In this document: positions 2,651 through 62,712 of the stretch, in pieces
Numbering within the stretch: position 1 is the stretch's first letter
How the letters are laid out: every line of letters starts with the position of its first letter
Assembly: GCA_963774395.1 (NCBI GenBank)
Contig: CAVZET010000006.1
Location: 431,148 to 495,147, forward strand
Direction of reading: 5' to 3'
DNA length: 64,000 nt
DNA from: an uncultured Solirubrobacterales bacterium
GTDB lineage: Bacteria > Actinomycetota > Thermoleophilia > Solirubrobacterales > 70-9
The notes under the pieces: generated by a model
The model's input: only the letters and a program-made list of their open reading frames with translations
What the model was told of the DNA's origin: nothing
The model's database searches: none
Program-made: the position numbers and the translations under genes

Positions 2651-3307
2651 GAGGCCCCCTCCCCCGCGCCGACGAGGCCGCGCTCAGCGGCGAGCACGGC
2701 GATCCGCTCGACGACCTGCTCGATGGTGAGCCCGTCGGTGGCGCACCTCGACCGCGTCGTCGGCTGCCCGCAGGGCGCCATGCTCGCGCTCCCGGTCGCG
2801 GGCATCGCGATCGCGCTGCTCGGCGAGGATCTCGGCTGCCTCGCGTCCACTCTGCAGCGCGCGGCGCCCAGCGCGCTCCTGCTCCGACGCCGTCAGGAAG
2901 ACCTTGAGCGGCGACTCAGGGCAGACGACGGTGCCGATGTCGCGGCCCTCGGCGACCCAGCCGCCCTCAGCGACGAGCTCGCGCTGGCGGTCGACCATCG
3001 CCTGGCGCACGCCCGGGTGCACGGAGACGCGCGAGGCCACGGCGGTCACGTCCGGCTCGCGGATCCGGGCGCTGACGTCCTCGCCTTCGAGCTCGACGAG
3101 CCCCGGCGCCATGCGCAGCTCGAGCGCTCGCGCGAGTGGCTCGACCTCGCCCGGTGCATCCGGATCGACCCCAGCCCGCAACGTGCACAACGCCACGCAG
3201 CGGTACATCGCGCCCGAATCGAGGTAGGTGAAGTCGAGGCGCTCGGCGAGCGCCTTCGCGACTGTCGACTTGCCGGCCCCTGCGGGTCCGTCGATGGCGA
3301 TCACCAT
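2647..3307 (-). CDS. cmk: cytidylate kinase; one frameshift near 2760
   Basis: [37 protein letters not shown]-loop N-terminus (ATG at 3307). The C-terminus [23 protein letters not shown] lies in ORF 2647..2850. Confidence 0.88.
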
Positions 3308-3363
3308 GGCGGCCGTCAGGGTACGCGAGCGGCGCCCAAGCGGCCGTCGGCCCTTTGTCCTCG

Positions 3364-4707
3364 TCAGTGAACGAGCGAGGCGAGGTCCGCCTCGAAGCCG
3401 GGGTAGCTGATCGCGGCGGCCTCCATCCCGTCGACGGTGACGCCCTCCTCGCGAGGCGAGCCCGGCGACGGCCCCGAGCATCGCGATCCGGTGATCGCCG
3501 GCCGCGGCGATCGTGCCGCCGCGCAGGCCGCCGTGGCCGCTGACGACGAAGCCGTCGGGCAGCGCCTCGATGTCGGCGCCGAGCGCGCCGAGCCCCGTCG
3601 ACGACCGTCTCGATCCGATCCGACTCCTTGTGGCGCAGCTCCTCGGCCCCCGTGACGACCGTCTCGCCCTCGGCGAAGCAGGCGGCGAGCGCGAGCAGCG
3701 GCAGCTCGTCGATCGCCAGCGGCACCTCGGCGCCGCCGATCCTCGTGCCCTCGAGGGCGCCTGCGCGGGCCGTCACGCTGCCGACCGGCTCGCCTGCCTC
3801 GAAGCCCTGCTCGACGACCTCGATCCGCGCCCCCATGCGGGTCAGGATGCCGAGCAGACCGACGCGCGTCGGGTTGAGCCCGACGCCGGTCGAGCGTCAC
3901 CGCGCTGCCCGGGACGAGCAGTGCCGCGACGAGATGGAAGGCGGCGCTCGACAGATCGCCGGCGACGCGCAGGGAAGGCAGCTGCGATCCGGGCGGCGGG
4001 CTCGATCGTGATTGCGGCCGGCGAGGGCGCCGTCGGCAGCGCCGTCCGGTCGGCGATCGGTCGAGCGCGGCCCCGGCCGCCGACAGCATCCGCTCGCGTG
4101 TGGTCGCGGGTTCGCTCGAGCTCGCGCACGACCGTCGGCCCGTCGGCCGAGCAGCCCGGCGAGCAGCAGGCACGACTTGACCTGGGCGGAGGCGACCGGC
4201 AGCGGATAGTCGATCGCCCGCAATGCCGTCCCCTCGATCCGCAGGGGCGGGCGGTCGCCCTCGGCGGCGTCGACGCCGGCGCCCATCGAGCCGCAGTGGC
4301 TCGGCCACCCTGCCCATCGGCCGACGAGCGGATCGAGGCGTCCCCGTCGAGCTCGAAGGAGCGGCCCTCCTGCCCGGCGAGCCACCCGGAGATCAGCCGA
4401 ATCAGGGTGCCGGCGTTGCCCGACGTCGATCGGGGCCTCGGCGCGCGGGCCGCGCAGGCCGACGCCCGAGATCCGCACGGACAGGGCGCCGCCACCCGCT
4501 TCGTCGTCCGATCTCGACGCTCGCGCCGAGTGCGGCAACGGCGTCGAGCGTGCTGCGCGTGTCGGCCGCGTCGAGGTAGCGCTCGATCGCGGTCTCTCCG
4601 TCGCTCATCGCGGCGAGCAGCGCGGCCCGATGCGAGATCGACTTGTCGGGGGGCGCCGCCAGGGTGCCGCTCAGCGGGCCCGGGGGATCGAAGCGCCTGG
4701 CGCCCAT
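3364..4707 (-). CDS. aroA: 3-phosphoshikimate 1-carboxyvinyltransferase (EPSP synthase); several frameshifts
   Basis: Fragments in order on the minus strand: [21 protein letters not shown] (4402..4707), [30 protein letters not shown] (3897..4538), [33 protein letters not shown] (2967..3836), and [26 protein letters not shown] at the C-terminus (stop at 3364). Confidence 0.88.
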
Positions 4708-22081: not shown

Positions 22082-22175
22082 TGGTCACATTGCCTCTCAA
22101 GTTAGGAGGGAACGTGACCAGCCGACCCAGAAGGATCCTTCCGCCGGCCTCCCCTCGCTGCAATCGCCGGCCGGG
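22082..22175 (+). repeat. intergenic repeat element: 39-nt hairpin (22082..22120) plus a conserved flank box (22148..22175)
   Basis: tggtcacattgcctctcaagttaggagggaacgtgacca has the same length and TGGTCAC...GTGACCA ends as the gcvT-leader hairpins. The box cctcccctcgctgcaatcgccggccggg lies 27 nt after it, the same spacing as in the gcvT-leader unit read on the opposite strand. Confidence 0.7.
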
Positions 22176-28970: not shown

Positions 28971-29916
28971 ATGGCACGTGCAATCTGGACAGGATCAATC
29001 AGCTTCGGGCTCCTGAACGTGCCCGTGAAGCTCTATTCGGCGGTCTCGAGCCGCTCGATCAGCTTCCGTGAGCTTCGCGACGGCGATCACTCGCGCATCC
29101 GCCACAAGCGGGTCGCCGAGGAGGACGGCGAAGAGGTCCCCTACGAGAAGATCGTCAAGGGCTACGAGATCGCGCCCGAGCAGTACGTGATCCTCAGCCG
29201 CGATGAGCTCGAGGACCTGGCGCCGAAGAAGACGAAGGCGATCCAGATCGAGGACTTCGTCGACCTCGACGAGATCGATCCGATCTACTTCGACCGCCCG
29301 TACTACCTCGGCCCGCAGCCCGGCGCCGAGCGCGCCTACGCCCTGCTCGTCAAGGCGATGGCGCGAACAGCGCAAGGTCGCGGTCGCGCGCTTCGTCATG
29401 CGCAACAAGGAGAGCCTCGCTGCGATCCGCGCGACCGGGGACGTGCTGACGCTGGCGACGATGCGATTTGCCGACGAGGTCGTCCCACCGGAGCAGCTCG
29501 ACGGGCTGCTCGGCGAGGAGGAGGACGTCGCGCCCAACAAGAAGGAGGTCGACATGGCGAAGGCCCTGATCGACTCCCTCGCCTCGGACTTCGAGCCGTC
29601 CGGCTACAAGGACGAGTACCGCGACGAGCTGCTCGATCTGATCGAGCGCAAGGCGCGCGGCGAGGATCTCGTCTCGGTCGACTCGGAGGCACCCAAGCCG
29701 ACGAAGGCGCCGGACCTGATGGCGGCGCTCGAGGAGAGCCTGGCCGCGGTCAAGGGCGAGGAGCTCGGCGGCGGCGGCGAACAGGCCAAGCCAAAGGCCA
29801 AGAGCTCCGGCAAGGGCGCTTCCTCCTCGAAGAAGTCCTCGTCCGGATCCTCCGGCTCGAGCCGCTCGAAGTCCTCGAAGGGGAGCTCGAAGTCGCGGGC
29901 AAAGGCCGCGAAGTAG
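28971..29916 (+). CDS. ku: NHEJ protein Ku with a Ser/Lys-rich C-terminal tail; one frameshift near 29368
   Basis: MARAIWTGSISFGLLNVPVKLYSA...PIYFDRPYYLGP (28971 frame), then REQRKVAVARFVMRNKESLAAIR...MRFADEV and the tail KPKAKSSGKGASSSKKSSSGSSGSSRSKSSKGSSKSRAKAAK (ORF 29203..29916). Confidence 0.88.
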
Positions 29917-30809
29917 AGGTCGACGGCCGGCGCCTGTCGGTCACCAACCTCGACAAGGTCCTCTACCCCGAGGCCGGATTCACCAAGGGGGAGGTGATCG
30001 ACTACTACGCGCGGATCGCGCCGGCGATCGTGCCTCACCTGAGCGACCGGGCGCTGACCGTTACGCGCTGGCCCGACGGCGTCGAGGGCAAGCACTTCTT
30101 CGAGAAGCGCAGCCCCAAGCACCGGCCGGAGTGGGTGCGGACCGAGTCGATCTGGGCCGGGCGCCGAGCCGGGGAGATCGAGTTCGCCGTCTGCGACGAC
30201 CGCCCGACGCTGATCTGGCTGGCGCAACTCGCGGCGCTCGAGCTGCATCCCTCGCTGTCGCTCGTGGCCGATGTCGAGCGGCCGACCGTGCTTGCCTTCG
30301 ACCTCGACCCCGGCCCTCCGGCGACGATCGTCGAATGCTGCGCGGTGGCGCTGACGATCCGCAAGCTCTTCGCCCGCTTCGACGTCGAGTGCTTCCCGAA
30401 GAGCTCGGGCTCGAAGGGAATGCAGGTCTACGTGCCGCTCAACACCGAGGTGAGCTACGAGGAGACGAAGCCCTTCGCCCGCGCCGTTGCGCAGGCGCTC
30501 GAGCGCTCGGAGCCCGACCTCGTCGTCTCGAAGATGAAGAAGGAGCTGCGCGGGGGCAAGGTCTTCGTCGACTGGAGCCAGAACGACGTCTCGAAGACGA
30601 CGATTGCCGTCTACTCGCTGCGCGCCCGCCCGCGGCCGACGGTCTCGACGCCGCTGCGCTGGGACGAGGTCGAGCGGTGCCTCGCCGACGGCGATCCCGG
30701 ACTGCTCGCCTTCGAGGCGGCCGCGGTGCTCGAGCGGGTCGACGAGCACGGCGACCTGTTCGCGCCGGTGCTCGAGCTCGAGCAGGGGCTGCCGGCCGAG
30801 ATCGTGTAG
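29913..30809 (+). CDS. LigD-type primase-polymerase domain protein (NHEJ polymerase); 5' boundary unresolved (no start codon)
   Basis: VEVDGRRLSVTNLDKVLYPEAGFTKGEVIDYY...RWPDG...FFEKR...LAFDLDPG...SGSKGMQVYVPL...VFVDWSQN in the frame of ORF 28971..30809, with its stop at 30809. Confidence 0.8.
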   Translation, partial: VEVDGRRLSVTNLDKVLYPEAGFTKGEVIDYYARIAPAIVPHLSDRALTVTRWPDGVEGKHFFEKRSPKHRPEWVRTESIWAGRRAGEIEFAVCDDRPTLIWLAQLAALELHPSLSLVADVERPTVLAFDLDPGPPATIVECCAVALTIRKLFARFDVECFPKSSGSKGMQVYVPLNTEVSYEETKPFARAVAQALERSEPDLVVSKMKKELRGGKVFVDWSQNDVSKTTIAVYSLRARPRPTVSTPLRWDEVERCLADGDPGLLAFEAAAVLERVDEHGDLFAPVLELEQGLPAEIV

Positions 30810-32275: not shown

Positions 32276-33841
32276 AAAGCTCCTGGCGGATGCGCGGGTT
32301 GCGCGTCGCGGCAACCTCGTCGAGGCGGCGGACCGGGGTCGTGTACGGGGCGCCGGCGAGGATCTCCGGATCGCGCTCGGCCTCCTCGAGGATCGACTCG
32401 ACCGCATCGGCGAAGGCGTCGAGCGACTCCTTCGTCTCGGTCTCGGTCGGCTCGACCATGATCGCCTCGTCGACGAGCAGCGGGAAGTAGATCGTCGGCG
32501 GGTGCATGCCGTGATCGAGGATGCGCTTGGCGATGTCGAGGGTCTTCGCGCCGAGCTCCTTCTTCGCCGGCTTGCCCGAGAGGACGAACTCGTGCATCGG
32601 GGTCCGCTCGAAGGCGAGCGGCAGATGCTTGCCGGCGCGGCCGGAGCGCATCCGCGCGAGCAGGTAGTTGGCGTTCAGCACGGCCGTCTCGGAGGCCTCG
32701 GTGAGGCCGTCGCCGCCGAGGCTGAGCATGTACGCGTAGGAGCGCACGAAGACGCCGAAGTTGCCCTGGAAGCCGCGCAGGCGGCCGATCGTCTCGGGGT
32801 GGGCGTCGGCGCCCTGCAGCGCGAAGCCGGGGGCCGCTGCCGTTGTCGCTCTCGAGCCGCTCGATCCGCGGCACCGGCAGGAACGGCTCGATCCGCTCGG
32901 AGACGGCGATCGGGCCGGCGCCGGGGCCGCCGCCGCCGTGCGGCTGGCTGAACGACTTGTGCAGGTTGACGTGGACGATGTCGAAGCCCATGTCGCCGGG
33001 CCGAACCTTGCCCATGATCGCGTTCAGGTTGGCGCCGTCGTAGTAGAGGGTGCCGCCGGCCTCGCGCACGATCCGCGTGATCTCGGCGATGTTCGAGTCG
33101 AAGAGGCCGAGCGTGTTCGGGTTGGTCAGCATCAGGCAGGCGGTCCGCTCCCCCGCCTTCGCCCGCAGGTCGTCGAGGTCGACGCCACCGTCGGGCGCGG
33201 TCGCGACCTTGACCACGTCGTAGCCGGCCATCGTCACCGAGGCCGGGTTGGTGCCGTGCGCGGTGTCCGGGGTCAGCACCTCGTGGCGCTGCTCCTCCTC
33301 GCCGTTGGCGGCGTGGAAGGCGCGGGTCAGCAGGAGGCCCGCGAGCTCGCCGTGCGAGCCGGCCGAGGGCTGCAGCGAGACGTGTGGCAGTCCGCAGATC
33401 TCCGAGAGCGCCCGCTCCAGGTTCCACATCAGCTCGAGCGCGCCCTGGGCCCGCTCGGGCTGCTGCGCGGGATGCAGGCGGGCGTGGCCGGGCAAGCGCG
33501 GCGACGCGCTCGTTGATCCGCGGGTTGTGCTTCATCGTGCACGAGCCGAGCGGGTAGAAGCCCGAGTCGAGGTCGAAGTTGCGGCGCGAGACGCGGTTGT
33601 AGTGGCGCACGATCTCCGGCTCGGCGACCTCGGGCAGCTCGCGCGGGCTCGCAGCGCAGCAGCTTCGCCGGGATCAGCTCCGCGAGCGGCGTCTCGGCCT
33701 CGGGCACGCCGGCGTCGGCGAAGACGGCGGCGCGGCGTCCGGGGACCGAGCGCTCGTAGATCGTCGTCGCGTGGTCGCGCTGCATCGGCGTCTCGGTGCA
33801 GGCTCGCCGGAGGGCGGCGTCGGTGGCTCTGGGCAGTCCGC

Positions 33842-33845
<4 letters not shown>
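32274..33845 (-). CDS. gcvPB: glycine dehydrogenase (decarboxylating) subunit 2; several frameshifts
   Basis: [38 protein letters not shown], and [18 protein letters not shown] (PLP lysine region). C-terminus [24 protein letters not shown] in ORF 32274..32747. The ATG at 33845 overlaps the gcvPA stop. Confidence 0.88.
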
Positions 33846-35247
<1,402 letters not shown>

Positions 35248-35297
35248 CGAAGGTCGCCTAGGTTAGAGATGCGGGTGGCGGGCGCCGGCGGGCACCG

Positions 35298-35724: not shown

Positions 35725-36816
35725 TCAGCTCTTCTTCTTCTCGTAAAGCGGCATCGGCCGGATCTCGGCGGCGCGCCGGCGCCCGCGGATGTCGACCTCG
35801 AGCTCCGTACCGGGCTCGGCCAGATCGGCGCGAACGTATCCCATTCCGGCGCCGAGCTGAAGCGAAGGGGCCCAGGTGCCGCTGGTCAGCGCACCGACCG
35901 GCTCGCCGTCGTACAGCAGCACGTTGCCGCCACGCGGGATGCCGCGCTCGGTGAGCACGAGCGCGACGAGCCTCTCCGGCGTCCCCTCGGCCCGGGCGCT
36001 TGCAATCGCCTCGGAACCGACGAAGCCCGTCTCCTCCTTGCAGCACCAGCCGAGCCCCGCCTCGATCGGGTTGCGCTCCGGGCTGATCTCGTTGCCGTGC
36101 AGGTGGAAGCAGACCTCGAGCCGCAGGGTGTCGCGAGCGCCCAGGCCGGCCGGGACGGCGCCCGCCTCGAGCAGCGCCCGCCACAGGCCGGCCGCCTGAT
36201 CCGGCGGAGCCAGCAGCTCGACCCCGGACTCGCCCGTGTAGCCGGTGCCGCAGACGAGGCACGGCACGCCGGCGACCTCGACCGAGGCCGTGTGCATCCG
36301 TGCCGGCAGCTCGCCCGCGGCGAGGCCGGCGACGATGCCGCGCGCCTCCGGGCCCTGGACGGCGAGCATCGCGTACTCAGCGGCCGCGTCGGTGATCGTC
36401 ACGTCGAAGCCCTCGGCGAGCTCGCGGAAGCGGGCCAGATCAGCCTCGTGGTTGGCGGCGTTGGTGACGGTCAGGTAGCTGCCGTCGTCGAGCAGGTAGG
36501 TGAAGAGGTCGTCCAGGATGCCCCCGTCGGCTGCGCACAGGCACGAGTACTGGGCGCCCCCGGCGGCGAGCTTGGCAACGTCGTTGGAAAGCAACCGCTG
36601 CAGGAAGGCGAGCGCGTCAGGCCCCTCGGTGCGGATCTCGCCCATGTGCGAGACGTCGAAGACGCCACAGGACGAGCGCACCGCAAGATGCTCCTCCTTG
36701 ACCCCCTCGTACTGAACGGGCATCTCCCAGCCCGCGAACGGCACCAGCCGCGCCCCAGCCGCCACGTGCTCGTCGTAGAGGGGCGTGCGGCGAAGATCGG
36801 TCCCTGCGTCACTCAC
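35725..36816 (-). CDS. gcvT: aminomethyltransferase (glycine cleavage T protein); intact
   Basis: RRTPLYDEHVAAGARLVPFAGWEMPVQYEGVKEEHLAVRSSCGVFDVSHMGE...CGTGYTGESGVEL...ARDTLRLE. GTG at 36816 is chosen over the longer ORF start at 37059. Confidence 0.88.
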   Translation of the reverse strand: MSDAGTDLRRTPLYDEHVAAGARLVPFAGWEMPVQYEGVKEEHLAVRSSCGVFDVSHMGEIRTEGPDALAFLQRLLSNDVAKLAAGGAQYSCLCAADGGILDDLFTYLLDDGSYLTVTNAANHEADLARFRELAEGFDVTITDAAAEYAMLAVQGPEARGIVAGLAAGELPARMHTASVEVAGVPCLVCGTGYTGESGVELLAPPDQAAGLWRALLEAGAVPAGLGARDTLRLEVCFHLHGNEISPERNPIEAGLGWCCKEETGFVGSEAIASARAEGTPERLVALVLTERGIPRGGNVLLYDGEPVGALTSGTWAPSLQLGAGMGYVRADLAEPGTELEVDIRGRRRAAEIRPMPLYEKKKS

Positions 36817-36870
36817 GCCGCCGAGGATATGGAAGGCGCCGGAGGTCTGGGCCTGGCGCTCAGAGCCCAC

Positions 36871-37091
36871 CGGTGACGTTGGACCACCCGGCGGAACCAA
36901 GGTGACCTCCCGCCGGCGAGAGCAGCGAGGGAGCGGTGAACGACAGCCCACCGGAGACGACTGGTCACGAAACCTCTCAACTTGAGAGGTTTCGTGACCA
37001 CCGGCAGGCGAGAGCACCGAGGAAGAGCTCAACGCAGCCCACGACGGACGGCTGGTCACGTTCCATCCTTATCAAGGACGTTTCGTGACCA
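36871..37091 (-). repeat. three tandem 91-bp repeat units in the gcvT leader, each starting with a 39-nt hairpin (37053..37091, 36962..37000, degenerate 36871..36909)
   Basis: 36962..37000 is a perfect 19+1+19 palindrome tggtcacgaaacctctcaa-c-ttgagaggtttcgtgacca. 37053..37091 keeps the 8-bp outer and 5-bp inner stems. The inter-hairpin segments align with each other (gtgggctg...tgctctcgcc). Confidence 0.8.
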
Positions 37092-37340
37092 CTCACTCCA
37101 GCCAAAGCCCCTCGCAGGCCACCCCCCTCACTGCCAAAGGGTGTCAACCGCCCACCCCTCGTCCCAGCTCACCCCAGCCCAGCCCCTCCCGCCGGCAATC
37201 GGCCACGTGAGGCTCTCTCCCGCGGGTGGCCCACAGATCGCAGGCCCCCGAGAAATGCCGGTGGCGCAGCGGGGCCTGCGCAGCTCCCGGACAGGACCCG
37301 CGGGCCGGGGACCCTCGCCGGCGACGCGCCGGCGACGCGA

Positions 37341-38426
37341 CTACCTGTCGCGCAGGAAGGGCGGGATGTCGATGTCGTCGTCGGAGACCTCGAGGCTGCG
37401 CATCTCGCGGTCGGACCGCTTGATCCCCGCACGCTCGCGACTGCGGCGGCGGACCTCGGCGGGCCTGCGGGCCAGGAGCTCGAAGCCCTCGAAGCCGGTG
37501 GCGATGACGGTCACCCGGAGCTCGTCGCCCATCGTGTTGTCGACGACCGAGCCGAAGATGATGTTGGCGCCCTTGTCCGCGGTCTCGACGACCACGTCGG
37601 CCGCCTCGTTGACCTCGAACAGGCCCATGTCCTCGCCGCCGGTGATGTTGAGCAGCATGCCCGTCGCACCGTCGATCGCGGACTCGAGCAGCGGCGAGGA
37701 GATCGCCTCCTTGGCGGCGTCCGCCGCGCGGCTCTCGCCCGAGGACGAACCGACGCCCATCAGCGCCGAGCCGGCGTCGGCCATGATCGCCCGCACGTCG
37801 GCGAAGTCGAGGTTGATCAGGCCGGGAACGGTGATCAGGTCGGTGATGCCCTGGACGCCCTGCCGGAGGATGTCGTCGGCCTTGCGGAAGGCCTCCGAGA
37901 TCGGCTCGCGGCGCTCGACGATGTTGAGCAGCTTCTCGTTCGGGACGATGATCAGCGTGTCGACCTCGTTGCGAAGGCGCTCGATCCCGTCGAGGGCCTG
38001 CTGCATGCGGCGCGAGCCCTCGAACTCGAAGGGCTTGGTGACGACGCCGACGGTCAGCGCGCCGATCTCCTGCTTGGCGATCTCAGCGATGACGGGCGCG
38101 GCGCCGGTGCCGGTGCCGCCGCCCTCGCCGGCGGTGACGAAGACCATGTCGGCGCCCTTGAGCGCCTCCTTGATGTCGTCGCGACTCTCCGAGGCGGCGC
38201 CGGCGCCGACCTCCGGGTTGCCGCCTGCACCGAGGCCGCGAGTCAGCTCCTGGCCGATCGCCAGCTTGACGTCGGCCTCGGAAGCGCGAAGAGCCTGAGC
38301 ATCGGTGTTCACGGCAAGGAACTCGACGCCCTTGAGGCCGGCATCGACCATCCGCGAGACAGCGTTGGTGCCGCCGCCCCCTGCGCCGACGACCTTGATC
38401 ACCGCGAGATAACTGGAAGCCTCCAT
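37341..38426 (-). CDS. ftsZ: cell division GTPase FtsZ; intact
   Basis: [27 protein letters not shown], the [17 protein letters not shown] tubulin signature, and a C-terminal DIDIPPFLR peptide. The ATG at 38426 lies within ORF 37341..38576. Confidence 0.95.
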
Positions 38427-62475: not shown

Positions 62476-62712
62476 TCAGCGCTTGCCGCCCTTACCCCCC
62501 TTGCCGTCGTGCTTGTGGCCCTTGCTGCCGTGCTTATGGCCCTTGCTGTCGTGCTTGTGGCCCTTGCCCTTGCTGTCGTGCTTCTGCCCGTGGTGGTCGT
62601 GCTTGCTGGCACTCTGGGCGGGCGAGGCGACGGCCTGGGCAGCGCCAACTCCGCCGAGCGCGAGGGCTGCGGTGGCTCCGAGGGCTGCAATTCTGGTCCG
62701 GTTGATGATCAT
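62476..62712 (-). CDS. small secreted His/Lys-rich repeat protein (78 aa); intact
   Basis: ATG at 62712 preceded by GGAGAAAAGGAGAAAAGC. Sec-type signal MIINRTRIAALGATAALALGGVGAAQA, then KHDHHGQKHDSKGKGHKHDSKGHKHGSKGHKHDGKGGKGGKR. Confidence 0.65.
   Translation of the reverse strand: MIINRTRIAALGATAALALGGVGAAQAVASPAQSASKHDHHGQKHDSKGKGHKHDSKGHKHGSKGHKHDGKGGKGGKR
62506..62606 (-). repeat. imperfect 18-27 nt tandem DNA repeats encoding the HKHDSKG units
   Basis: The plus strand shows gtcgtgcttgtggcccttgct repeated with small variations four to five times. Confidence 0.7.

Follow-up and report, generated by a model that had tools for sequence, protein, structure and literature searches.

Hairpin array in the ftsZ-gcvT spacer

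The window analyzed in this study is a stretch of 64,000 nucleotides (nt) from contig CAVZET010000006.1 of an uncultured Solirubrobacterales bacterium. Its DNA is high in G+C, and the top matches to its GcvT are proteins labeled "MAG: Solirubrobacterales" (MAG, metagenome-assembled genome). The genes ftsZ, gcvT, gcvH, gcvPA, and gcvPB follow each other in this order on the minus strand, and an array of hairpins lies in the 524-nt spacer between the first two. The upstream gene ftsZ (37341 to 38426, minus strand; 361 aa with Tubulin and FtsZ_C domains) is co-oriented with the repeat element described below and is placed by synteny. Downstream of the array, gcvT (35725 to 36816, minus strand) encodes an aminomethyltransferase of 363 aa with domains PF01571 and PF08669. 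Its best match is 94% identical, and its GTG start at 36816 is backed by homologue lengths of 360 to 363 aa. Compared at the sequence level with other loci, the array was shown to belong to a modular repeat element that has multiple intergenic copies, of which the window contains one, and that is confined to a narrow clade of uncultured Solirubrobacterales.

Read in the sense of gcvT, the array consists of two 91-nt units, each made of a 39-nt hairpin and a 52-nt linker, followed by a variant third hairpin. The hairpin of unit 1 (TGGTCACGAAACGTCCTTGATAAGGATGGAACGTGACCA; 37053 to 37091, minus strand) is of a type that we call alpha and has an 8-bp outer stem, an AAA/GAA internal loop, a 7-bp inner stem, and a 3-nt loop. 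It scored 60.4 bits (E = 8e-18) with the covariance model R1 described below and had a folding energy of -21.6 kcal/mol. The hairpin of unit 2 (beta type; 36962 to 37000, minus strand) begins 91 nt further on; it scored 59.8 bits and folded at -31.9 kcal/mol. Inverted-repeat analysis recovered it as the perfect 19+1+19 palindrome that had been noted earlier. For both hairpins, the covariance-model E values were about 1e-17. The motif GGTCACG-N(10-35)-CGTGACC occurs twice in the window, compared with 0.02 occurrences expected from shuffled sequences.

Linker 1 (37001 to 37052, minus strand) was delimited by repeat comparison; it has 52 nt and is rich in C and T (...GTGGGCTGC...GGTGCTCTCGCC...). 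Linker 2 (...GGTGGGCTG...CGCTCCCTCGCTGCTCTCGCCGGCGG; 36909 to 36961, minus strand) is complementary to part of the left module of the element. The two are 80% identical over 41 nt and 75% identical across the whole linker, and the whole units are 74% identical to each other. The array ends with a terminal module (36864 to 36908, minus strand), which comprises the variant hairpin (AGGTCACCTTGG...CCAACGTCACC; 36872 to 36908) and the motif GGTGGGCT (36864 to 36871). From the 3' edge of the array to the GTG of gcvT, the distance is 55 nt, about what an earlier note on this DNA had given. That note had described three tandem 91-bp units, the third of them degenerate. The 91-bp spacing was found for hairpins 1 and 2, and two such units are present. 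The third hairpin is indeed imperfect, but it represents a separate terminal module that is conserved in paralogous copies rather than the product of random decay.

Tandem Repeats Finder (TRF) did not report the period-91 array, because it has merely two good copies that are 74% identical. It should be noted that gcvPA and gcvPB of the window contain frameshift-type indels, so that spacings at the level of single bases may be off by one. Unit spacings of 91 to 93 nt were observed again at three of the loci fetched for comparison (L018, L021, and L022; fetched loci are designated by L numbers).

Several other classes of repeat were ruled out. A protein-coding repeat was rejected, since a period of 91 nt cannot be divided evenly by 3; the open frame that runs through the array is ordinary for DNA of about 70% G+C. 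The earlier note had favored a duplicated unit over a repeat-spacer arrangement, and the homology of the linkers bears this out. The supposed spacers of a CRISPR-like array are 75 to 80% identical to each other and are found again at other loci. An RNA array of a type III toxin-antitoxin system was dismissed, as a downstream toxin gene is absent and the copies are dispersed, and a GGAAC...CGTC promoter of the extracytoplasmic function (ECF) type within the unit was dismissed on account of its wrong spacing. Resemblances of the hairpin arms to parS, LexA, GlnR, and MtrA boxes were also considered, and none of these seems to fit in spacing or sequence.

The array is part of a composite element

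Nearly the whole spacer of the window, an insert of about 470 nt, recurs at other loci. The composite element (36864 to 37330, minus strand; left boundary ±8 nt) consists of a left module, two hairpin-linker units, the terminal hairpin, and GGTGGGCT. Its extent was derived from an alignment of the window copy with the paralogous copies L005, L007/L013, L018, L021, and L024 and the orthologous copies L022 and L023, for which 260 nt on either side of the arrays were taken. Homology to the other copies runs from near cgccggcgagggtcc to ggtgggct. The genes that flank these copies are unrelated. The copies lie at the junctions of a sigma-70 gene and a pilT-type ATPase gene (L005), enolase (eno) and divIC (L007 and its orthologue L013), a coaBC-like gene and a TPR-protein gene (L018), a small Cys-rich open reading frame (ORF) and an MBL-fold hydrolase gene (L021), an FAD oxidoreductase gene and a small ORF (L024), and ftsZ and gcvT (window, L022, and L023).

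The order of modules is the left module, 0 to 3 hairpin-linker units, the terminal hairpin, and GGTGGGCT. The terminal hairpin has the consensus AGGTCAsCTTGG...CCArCGTGACC; the arrays of L018, L021, L022, and L024 share it in conserved form at their 3' ends, and L007 and L023 have a diverged form. The units also follow a fixed order of subtypes: L018, L021, and L024 have gamma-alpha-beta-terminal, and the window and L022 have alpha-beta-terminal. Unit 2 of the window and the beta units at L022, L018, and L021 are 93 to 95% identical, and each unit of the window is 81 to 95% identical to the unit at the same position at other loci or in other genomes. Given these identities of 93 to 95% versus 74% between the two units of the window, the units are old, distinct modules that arrived together and not a fresh local duplication.

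A local origin, namely slippage in a variable-number tandem repeat (VNTR) that was born upstream of gcvT and is otherwise neutral, is accordingly very improbable. It would account for the head-to-tail arrangement, the 91-nt period, and the differing unit number at orthologous loci. It does not account for units that resemble their counterparts elsewhere more than each other, nor for the order alpha-beta-terminal at four or more loci. Since unit identities and recurring order indicate that the array predates the insertion at ftsZ-gcvT, local duplication is refuted as its origin, and slippage is a plausible source of later changes in unit number.

The left module (37092 to 37330, minus strand) is G-rich and about 240 nt long. 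It was defined by an alignment of nine copies, and an nhmmer profile found it once in the window. All of its features lie on the minus strand. It begins with cgccggcgagggtccYcggcccgcgggtcctgtcc and continues with a hairpin of variable sequence and ggccacccgcgggagggag; in the window, a motif resembling a terminal inverted repeat (TIR) was found by motif search at 37290 to 37309, and the variable hairpin was found as an inverted repeat at 37239 to 37280. Its 3' part, known from the nine-copy alignment, is composed of a run of G-tracts (37151 to 37190), a conserved TTGAC(A/G) (TTGACA at 37142 to 37147 of the window), and the stretch ...gaggtgggct..ggcttggctgg. The G-tracts (GGGAGGGGCTGGGCTGGGGTGAGCTGGGACGAGGGGTGGG) lie on the sense, non-template strand, are kept in the paralogues, and match a canonical G-quadruplex pattern. 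They may contribute to pausing or termination after the upstream gene.

The last linker is 71 to 73% complementary to the left module over 26 to 28 nt in the window, L018, L021, and L024, which are few and similar copies. In the window, the arms lie at 36912 to 36939 and 37169 to 37196 and are 71% complementary. If transcribed, the element would thus form a foldback with the hairpins in its middle. In L005, L013, and L024, the right end is an inverted left end, giving TIRs of 22 to 30 nt (CTCGGCCCGCGGGTCCTGTC ends) that are 80 to 86% complementary. Reduced and expanded forms were also found. A second copy in L005 has a left module and zero units, and L016 contains, at 2775 to 3970, three tandem repeats of 303 nt with one hairpin each, followed by four tandem 27-nt inverted end motifs (GACAGGACCCGCGCGCCGAGGACCCGG). 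In this variant of the family, the tandem copies abut the stop codon of a convergent gene.

Dispersal and structure of the hairpin family

An exact-pattern scan (TGGTYACRAAAC-N(15-23)-CGTGACCAG) of one genome per species, covering 185,579 species, yielded 21 stretches. Thirteen of them belong to three Solirubrobacterales MAGs, MFD01721.bin.2.10, MFD01721.bin.2.157, and MFD05442.bin.2.280. The others are single matches in unrelated phyla, most of them without a comparable inner stem, and were taken as chance on the basis of their sequence. With model R1, at least 30 hairpins were identified in the fetched loci. Copy numbers per genome (2 to 9 hairpins per MAG) are lower bounds that count strict-pattern matches. 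The earlier note's call for a search of related genomes for copies was thus answered by a dispersed family, and its description of a VNTR-like locus variable in copy number agrees with units at many loci, 0 to 3 at each, and with differences at the orthologous ftsZ-gcvT locus.

The structure was evaluated with an alignment of 16 hairpin sequences (A1). They fit a fold whose outer stem of 8 bp is separated by a 3x3 internal loop (AAA/GAA) from an inner stem of 7 bp, which is capped by a 3-nt loop; 96% of the cells are paired. The outer arms are essentially invariant across loci, and the purine internal loop is conserved. Both sides have changed in five of the seven inner-stem pairs, and the covariation score was 0.334, compared with 0.141 for shuffled alignments and at most 0.109 when partners were slid. 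Conserved structure across copies, which the earlier note had left to be examined, is therefore present, and the covariation of the inner stem shows that complementarity is maintained. Among 22 distinct hairpins, 15 G.U cells were counted versus 8 A.C cells, and the sense strand was the more stable one in 18 of the 22. This strand asymmetry is modest.

Exactly three hairpins were found by R1 in the window, two of them in the array and the third at 22082 to 22121 on the plus strand. The latter belongs to a solo unit of hairpin and linker (22082 to 22172, plus strand), which matched the nhmmer unit profile with E = 1.4e-9 and scored 53.6 bits on the plus strand versus 37.0 bits on the minus strand. 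It is located between the stop of an ABC permease gene (22192) and the start of a DJ-1/AraC-type gene (about 22002), antisense to both; in a relative of 83% identity, the spacer at this junction is 10 nt. Solo hairpins (window 22082, L008, L010, L015, and L020) occur in both orientations and are nearly palindromic. In L008 (571 to 610) and L020 (4420 to 4459), which belong to two different MAGs, the solo hairpin is situated right on the 5' end of an AbiEi_4/REase_MTES_1575 (DUF559-like) gene, and in L020 the 3' arm of the hairpin contains a candidate GTG start. In L010 (4051 to 4231), the solo hairpin lies 48 nt off the 3' end of a tRNA-Sec gene (4139 to 4231, minus strand) and is antisense to it.

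A metagenome scan added four hairpins, L026 to L029, from the single sample Ga0081538. Their arms are the same as those of the other hairpins; the covarying inner stem and the conserved flank differ, and the stem is extended (GGGGGT/ACCCCC). The hairpin core, that is, the invariant arms and the AAA/GAA loop, is thus conserved across at least two lineages, and the Ga0081538 sequences point to a wider superfamily of hairpin-based repeats. In L026 to L028, the hairpin is followed by a different conserved module of about 100 to 250 nt (…gcacgcgtgggttacgtgcgttacggaccggccgcaacaccgtggtgct…), of which L029 shares just the first ~35 nt. No match was obtained in viral contigs by the hairpin scan or in plasmids and phages by blastn of the composite.

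Insertion into the ftsZ-gcvT junction

The synteny of ftsZ with gcvTHP is conserved among the relatives examined, and the content of the spacer differs. In MFD05442.bin.2.280 (L001, which is the same locus as L022; GcvT 94% identical), a 523-nt spacer contains the same three modules. The spacer of MFD01721.bin.2.157 (L023) is longer and rearranged; it has a single canonical unit and a terminal-type hairpin, along with extra material, compared with two units and a terminal module in the window and L022. In L003, L004, and L030, whose GcvT is 78 to 84% identical, the spacers have 70, 77, and 134 nt and no hairpin. The idea that relatives might lack the array, raised by the earlier note, is borne out at this distance and not in L022 and L023, where the array is present. 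Because the more distant relatives are without it, the ~470-nt block represents a lineage-specific insertion into an ancestrally short spacer of about 70 to 130 nt. The empty sites at ftsZ-gcvT and at the solo unit are too diverged to fix exact insertion boundaries or a target-site duplication.

In L002 (2492 to 3004) and L031 (918 to 1412), with GcvT identities of 79 to 80%, the junction lacks the element and a cupin-domain gene lies between ftsZ and gcvT. Different insertions have therefore hit this junction in different lineages. The cupin gene overlaps the gcvT start by 4 nt in both loci.

The element has been remodeled after its arrival. The inner stem of hairpin 1 is wholly different in the window and L022 (CGTCCTTgatAAGGATG versus CACCGCAagtTGCGGTG), with flanks that are about 80 to 90% identical, which indicates that a whole stem "cassette" was exchanged. 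Taken together, the aligned loci showed that the element entered a short ftsZ-gcvT spacer and was later inherited and remodeled, through exchange of hairpin cassettes and changes in unit number.

Orientation and folding

All eight independent loci with a composite or left module have it co-oriented with the upstream gene, for which the probability under random orientation is about 0.004. At each of the eight, the element starts within a few tens of nt of the stop codon of the upstream gene. The downstream gene is convergent at two of them (the second L005 copy and L016), and copies between convergent genes cannot be a 5' leader. The orientation bias speaks for a composite that is tolerated, or is active, within the transcript of the upstream gene and against a 5' leader. 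When the spacer of the window was folded as RNA, -307 kcal/mol (z = -5.4) was obtained for the sense strand and -251 kcal/mol (z = -3.8) for the antisense strand.

Start of gcvT

Scanning for a glycine riboswitch gave a negative result. At the gathering threshold, no Rfam family, RF00504 included, matched anywhere in the window, and a permissive scan of 36000 to 38000 on both strands (E ≤ 10) also returned nothing relevant, RF00504 included. Its sole match was a small RNA (sRNA) model inside ftsZ with E = 4.3, taken as chance. These empty scans led us to conclude that gcvT has no glycine riboswitch. Neither a sigma-70 promoter nor a U-tailed intrinsic terminator was found by scans of the ftsZ-gcvT spacer, the hairpins being without U-tracts.

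A -10-like hexamer of the form TAnnnT (TATCCT; 36824 to 36829, minus strand) lies 7 nt 5' of the gcvT GTG and is a candidate promoter. No purine-rich Shine-Dalgarno sequence is present just upstream of the GTG. In actinobacterial promoters, TAnnnT a few nt 5' of a start codon without a Shine-Dalgarno sequence is the signature of a leaderless mRNA. The same TATCCT precedes gcvT in the L001 and L023 orthologues, and in L003 and L004, where the element is absent, TAGCCT is found 8 nt upstream of gcvT. Judged by these motifs, the gcvT mRNA is probably leaderless and starts downstream of the array. Counted from the transcription start of gcvT, the array would then span -55 to -275, outside any leader, and the earlier note's placement of the array within a transcribed gcv leader is unlikely to hold.

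In L030 (218 to 276), a relative of 84% identity, TATCCT lies ~50 nt 5' of the gcvT GTG and is followed after 9 nt by an ATG. An ORF of 14 codons begins at this ATG, and its TGA overlaps the GTG of gcvT (GTGA). It may represent a leaderless upstream ORF that is coupled to gcvT.

Interpretation and alternative explanations

We consider that the array belongs to a dispersed modular repeat that was inserted at ftsZ-gcvT and has no part in glycine-specific regulation, and we assign this explanation a probability of roughly 0.7. The 39-nt hairpin, with its invariant outer arms, AAA/GAA loop, and freely covarying inner stem, would be the core module that is recognized or maintains itself. The composite would spread or be homogenized in blocks by transposition, gene conversion, or both. 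It would be tolerated only when oriented like the upstream gene, as it would be transcribed as the 3' region of that gene. At ftsZ-gcvT, the stable foldback and hairpins would at most serve as a barrier, attenuator, or insulator at the 3' end of the ftsZ transcript, and any role as terminator or stabilizer is putative. Downstream of the element, gcvT would be separately promoted and probably leaderless, and the element would neither sense glycine nor regulate gcv specifically.

Several points weigh against this explanation. A Pfam scan that covered a minority of the ORFs in the 8-kb loci, namely ones immediately flanking the repeats, found no transposase or other mobilizing gene. A right-hand TIR was looked for and is absent from the window copy, as it is from L018 and L021, and no direct repeat that would represent a target-site duplication is evident at the ends of L024. 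With neither a mobilizer nor a target-site duplication seen, mobility is deduced solely from dispersal and presence or absence. The orientation bias is drawn from few loci, which were picked through the hairpin pattern, and the 8/8 result could reflect replication-strand bias, as with single-stranded DNA (ssDNA) transposons. A handful of swapped cassettes account for the "covariation" of the inner stem, and quasi-palindrome correction or gene conversion could generate it even if the fold is not under selection. The hairpins have no U-tracts, and terminator-like sites were not found. Finally, three genomes have kept the element at ftsZ-gcvT, where it may have a local effect on the expression of gcvT or ftsZ.

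A more specific possibility, which we regard as unlikely, is an intercistronic RNA module: the composite would be transcribed and constrained in its orientation, and its hairpin would be the site of a conserved RNA- or ssDNA-binding protein. The arrays would then be portable insulators or cassettes for 3'-end processing or stability, copied between junctions by the cell or by a domesticated Y1-type enzyme.

Somewhat less probable still is an operator array in double-stranded DNA (dsDNA), in which the invariant arms TGGTCACG...CGTGACCA would be half-sites for a regulator or nucleoid protein and the copies a regulon or binding landscape. The sites are intergenic, the arms stay invariant across loci and in the second lineage while the center varies, and bacterial interspersed mosaic elements (BIMEs) are known to bind IHF and gyrase (PMC3184786). 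However, a dimer site in dsDNA does not need a 23-bp gap with a self-complementary, covarying center, and other conserved modules of about 400 nt in all accompany the hairpin. Copies also follow a tRNA-Sec gene, separate convergent genes, or lie inside an operon junction in antisense orientation. A protein-binding array dedicated to gcvT, as the earlier note had envisaged, is unlikely in view of the unrelated genes beside the composite and its absence in relatives at 78 to 84% identity.

To an independently expressed family of structured noncoding RNAs, that is, a multi-copy sRNA or a scaffold in which each AAA/GAA-loop hairpin binds a protein, we give a similarly small chance. Such a family would be consistent with the excess of G.U over A.C cells, the more stable sense strand in most hairpins, the much stronger sense fold of the whole element, the constrained orientation, and the conserved purine internal loop. 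By contrast, the left end has no conserved TAnnnT or sigma-70 promoter and the right end no terminator, module number and content vary freely (0 to 3 units, and the 303-nt variants in L016), solo hairpins occur in both orientations, and no Rfam family matches.

Least probable of all, and largely refuted already, is a gcvT-specific cis-regulatory leader RNA, riboswitch-like or an attenuator, that is transcribed from a promoter upstream of the array and controls the gcvTHP operon. The array does lie directly upstream of gcvT in sense orientation, a position that the glycine riboswitch occupies in many bacteria, and it has a stable RNA fold and is kept in three genomes; yet there is no Rfam match even at E ≤ 10, the same composite lies beside unrelated genes and in convergent spacers, the gcvT relatives at 78 to 84% identity lack it, the hexamer 7 nt upstream without a Shine-Dalgarno sequence indicates a leaderless mRNA, and the spacer has no detectable sigma-70-like promoter. 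The earlier suggestion of a structured regulatory RNA for gcv is not supported.

For annotation, this removes a tempting but false "structured gcvT leader": the lineage seems to be without a glycine riboswitch, and gcvT is seemingly leaderless.

Comparison with known repeat systems

The closest analogues of the element, judged by comparison of their layout, are BOX elements, BIMEs, and mycobacterial interspersed repetitive units (MIRUs), and the architecture of BOX is the best match. In Streptococcus pneumoniae, BOX elements consist of boxA, a variable number of boxB, and boxC, and their internal modules fold independently (PMC3049150). A 5' module, variable tandem internal modules, and a 3' module were found here at eight or more loci, and both elements are multi-copy, intergenic, and located beside unrelated genes. 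In BOX too, a large stem-loop is predicted if the element is transcribed, and the number of units varies between genomes (PMC3049150). The likeness is one of architecture, and membership of the BOX family is not claimed: no kinship in sequence is expected or in evidence, the phyla differ, and the Solirubrobacterales element has ~70% G+C. Its units are 91 nt long with a 39-nt hairpin, whereas boxB modules have about 45 nt; its left module is much longer (~240 nt), and its copy number is so far low. Moreover, BOX is tied through TIRs to an insertion sequence (ISSpn2), while no known insertion sequence corresponds to the Solirubrobacterales element.

BIMEs are mosaics of repetitive extragenic palindromic (REP) sequences and other motifs that affect mRNA 3' ends and attenuation (PMC3184786). 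Like the REP sequences of enterobacteria and pseudomonads, which measure about 20 to 65 nt and typically ~35 nt, the 39-nt hairpins are G+C-rich, imperfect palindromes of ~35 to 40 nt that are intergenic and occur singly or in mosaic clusters. They differ from them in that GTAG, the tetranucleotide that marks REP sequences associated with transposases, is not found 5' of the palindrome, the bases before the hairpins being variable (gag, cgg, cag, cac, and others), and in that the hairpins of an array have direct and not alternating orientation. No gene for a REP-associated tyrosine transposase (RAYT) was found among the flanking ORFs scanned with Pfam, which are a minority of the ORFs of the 8-kb loci, and the copies number in the tens (a lower bound) versus hundreds.

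With MIRUs, which also occur in Actinomycetota, the element has in common tandem units of 40 to 100 bp that are dispersed between co-directional genes in the same orientation (PMC3184786). Unit number varies at a locus in both (0 to 3 units of 91 to 93 nt here). The small ORFs of MIRUs that overlap flanking genes and couple translation were not found; the 91-nt period is not divisible by 3, the units are hairpins, and they are embedded in a composite with specific left and terminal modules. The element resembles miniature inverted-repeat transposable elements (MITEs) in its size of 300 to 610 nt, its strongly paired fold, its presence/absence polymorphism, and, for some copies only (L005, L013, and L024), its TIRs of 22 to 30 nt. 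Unlike MITEs, the element is not AT-rich, has no recognized target-site duplication and no known parent insertion sequence, lacks the right TIR in the window copy, and contains an atypical internal tandem array. The likeness to the glycine riboswitch (RF00504), which consists in the position upstream of gcvT and the tandem look, is superficial; the covariance model of that riboswitch gave no match, and the element is not gcv-specific.

We found no paper that describes repeats of this kind in Solirubrobacterales, and on this basis the modular family appears to be previously undescribed. It documents such a family in an abundant, almost uncultured order of soil bacteria. Its BOX-like architecture, cassette exchange, and strict orientation make it a usable case for studying how elements spread and are kept in high-G+C Actinomycetota, and the array is a potential VNTR-type strain marker for these MAG populations. 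It deserves attention that the orientation is strict, that the purine internal loop is conserved, and that the hairpin core persists in a second lineage with different flanks.

Other features of the window

The gcvPA and gcvPB genes (32700 to 35250, minus strand) are each split into two to four frames relative to the L001 orthologue, to which they are 92 to 97% identical, with frame changes near 34057, 33645, 33495, and ~32840. Either these are assembly indels of a long-read MAG, of which such frameshifts are typical, or the gcv operon is decaying. A Ku/LigD-like ORF (28971 to 30809) and other ORFs of the window also turn midway into Arg-rich, out-of-frame sequence. The strongest repeat reported by TRF is located at 62498 to 62610 (periods 21 and 48, scores 114 to 135; unit CCCTTGCCGTCGTGCTTGTGG) and is unrelated to the hairpin array.

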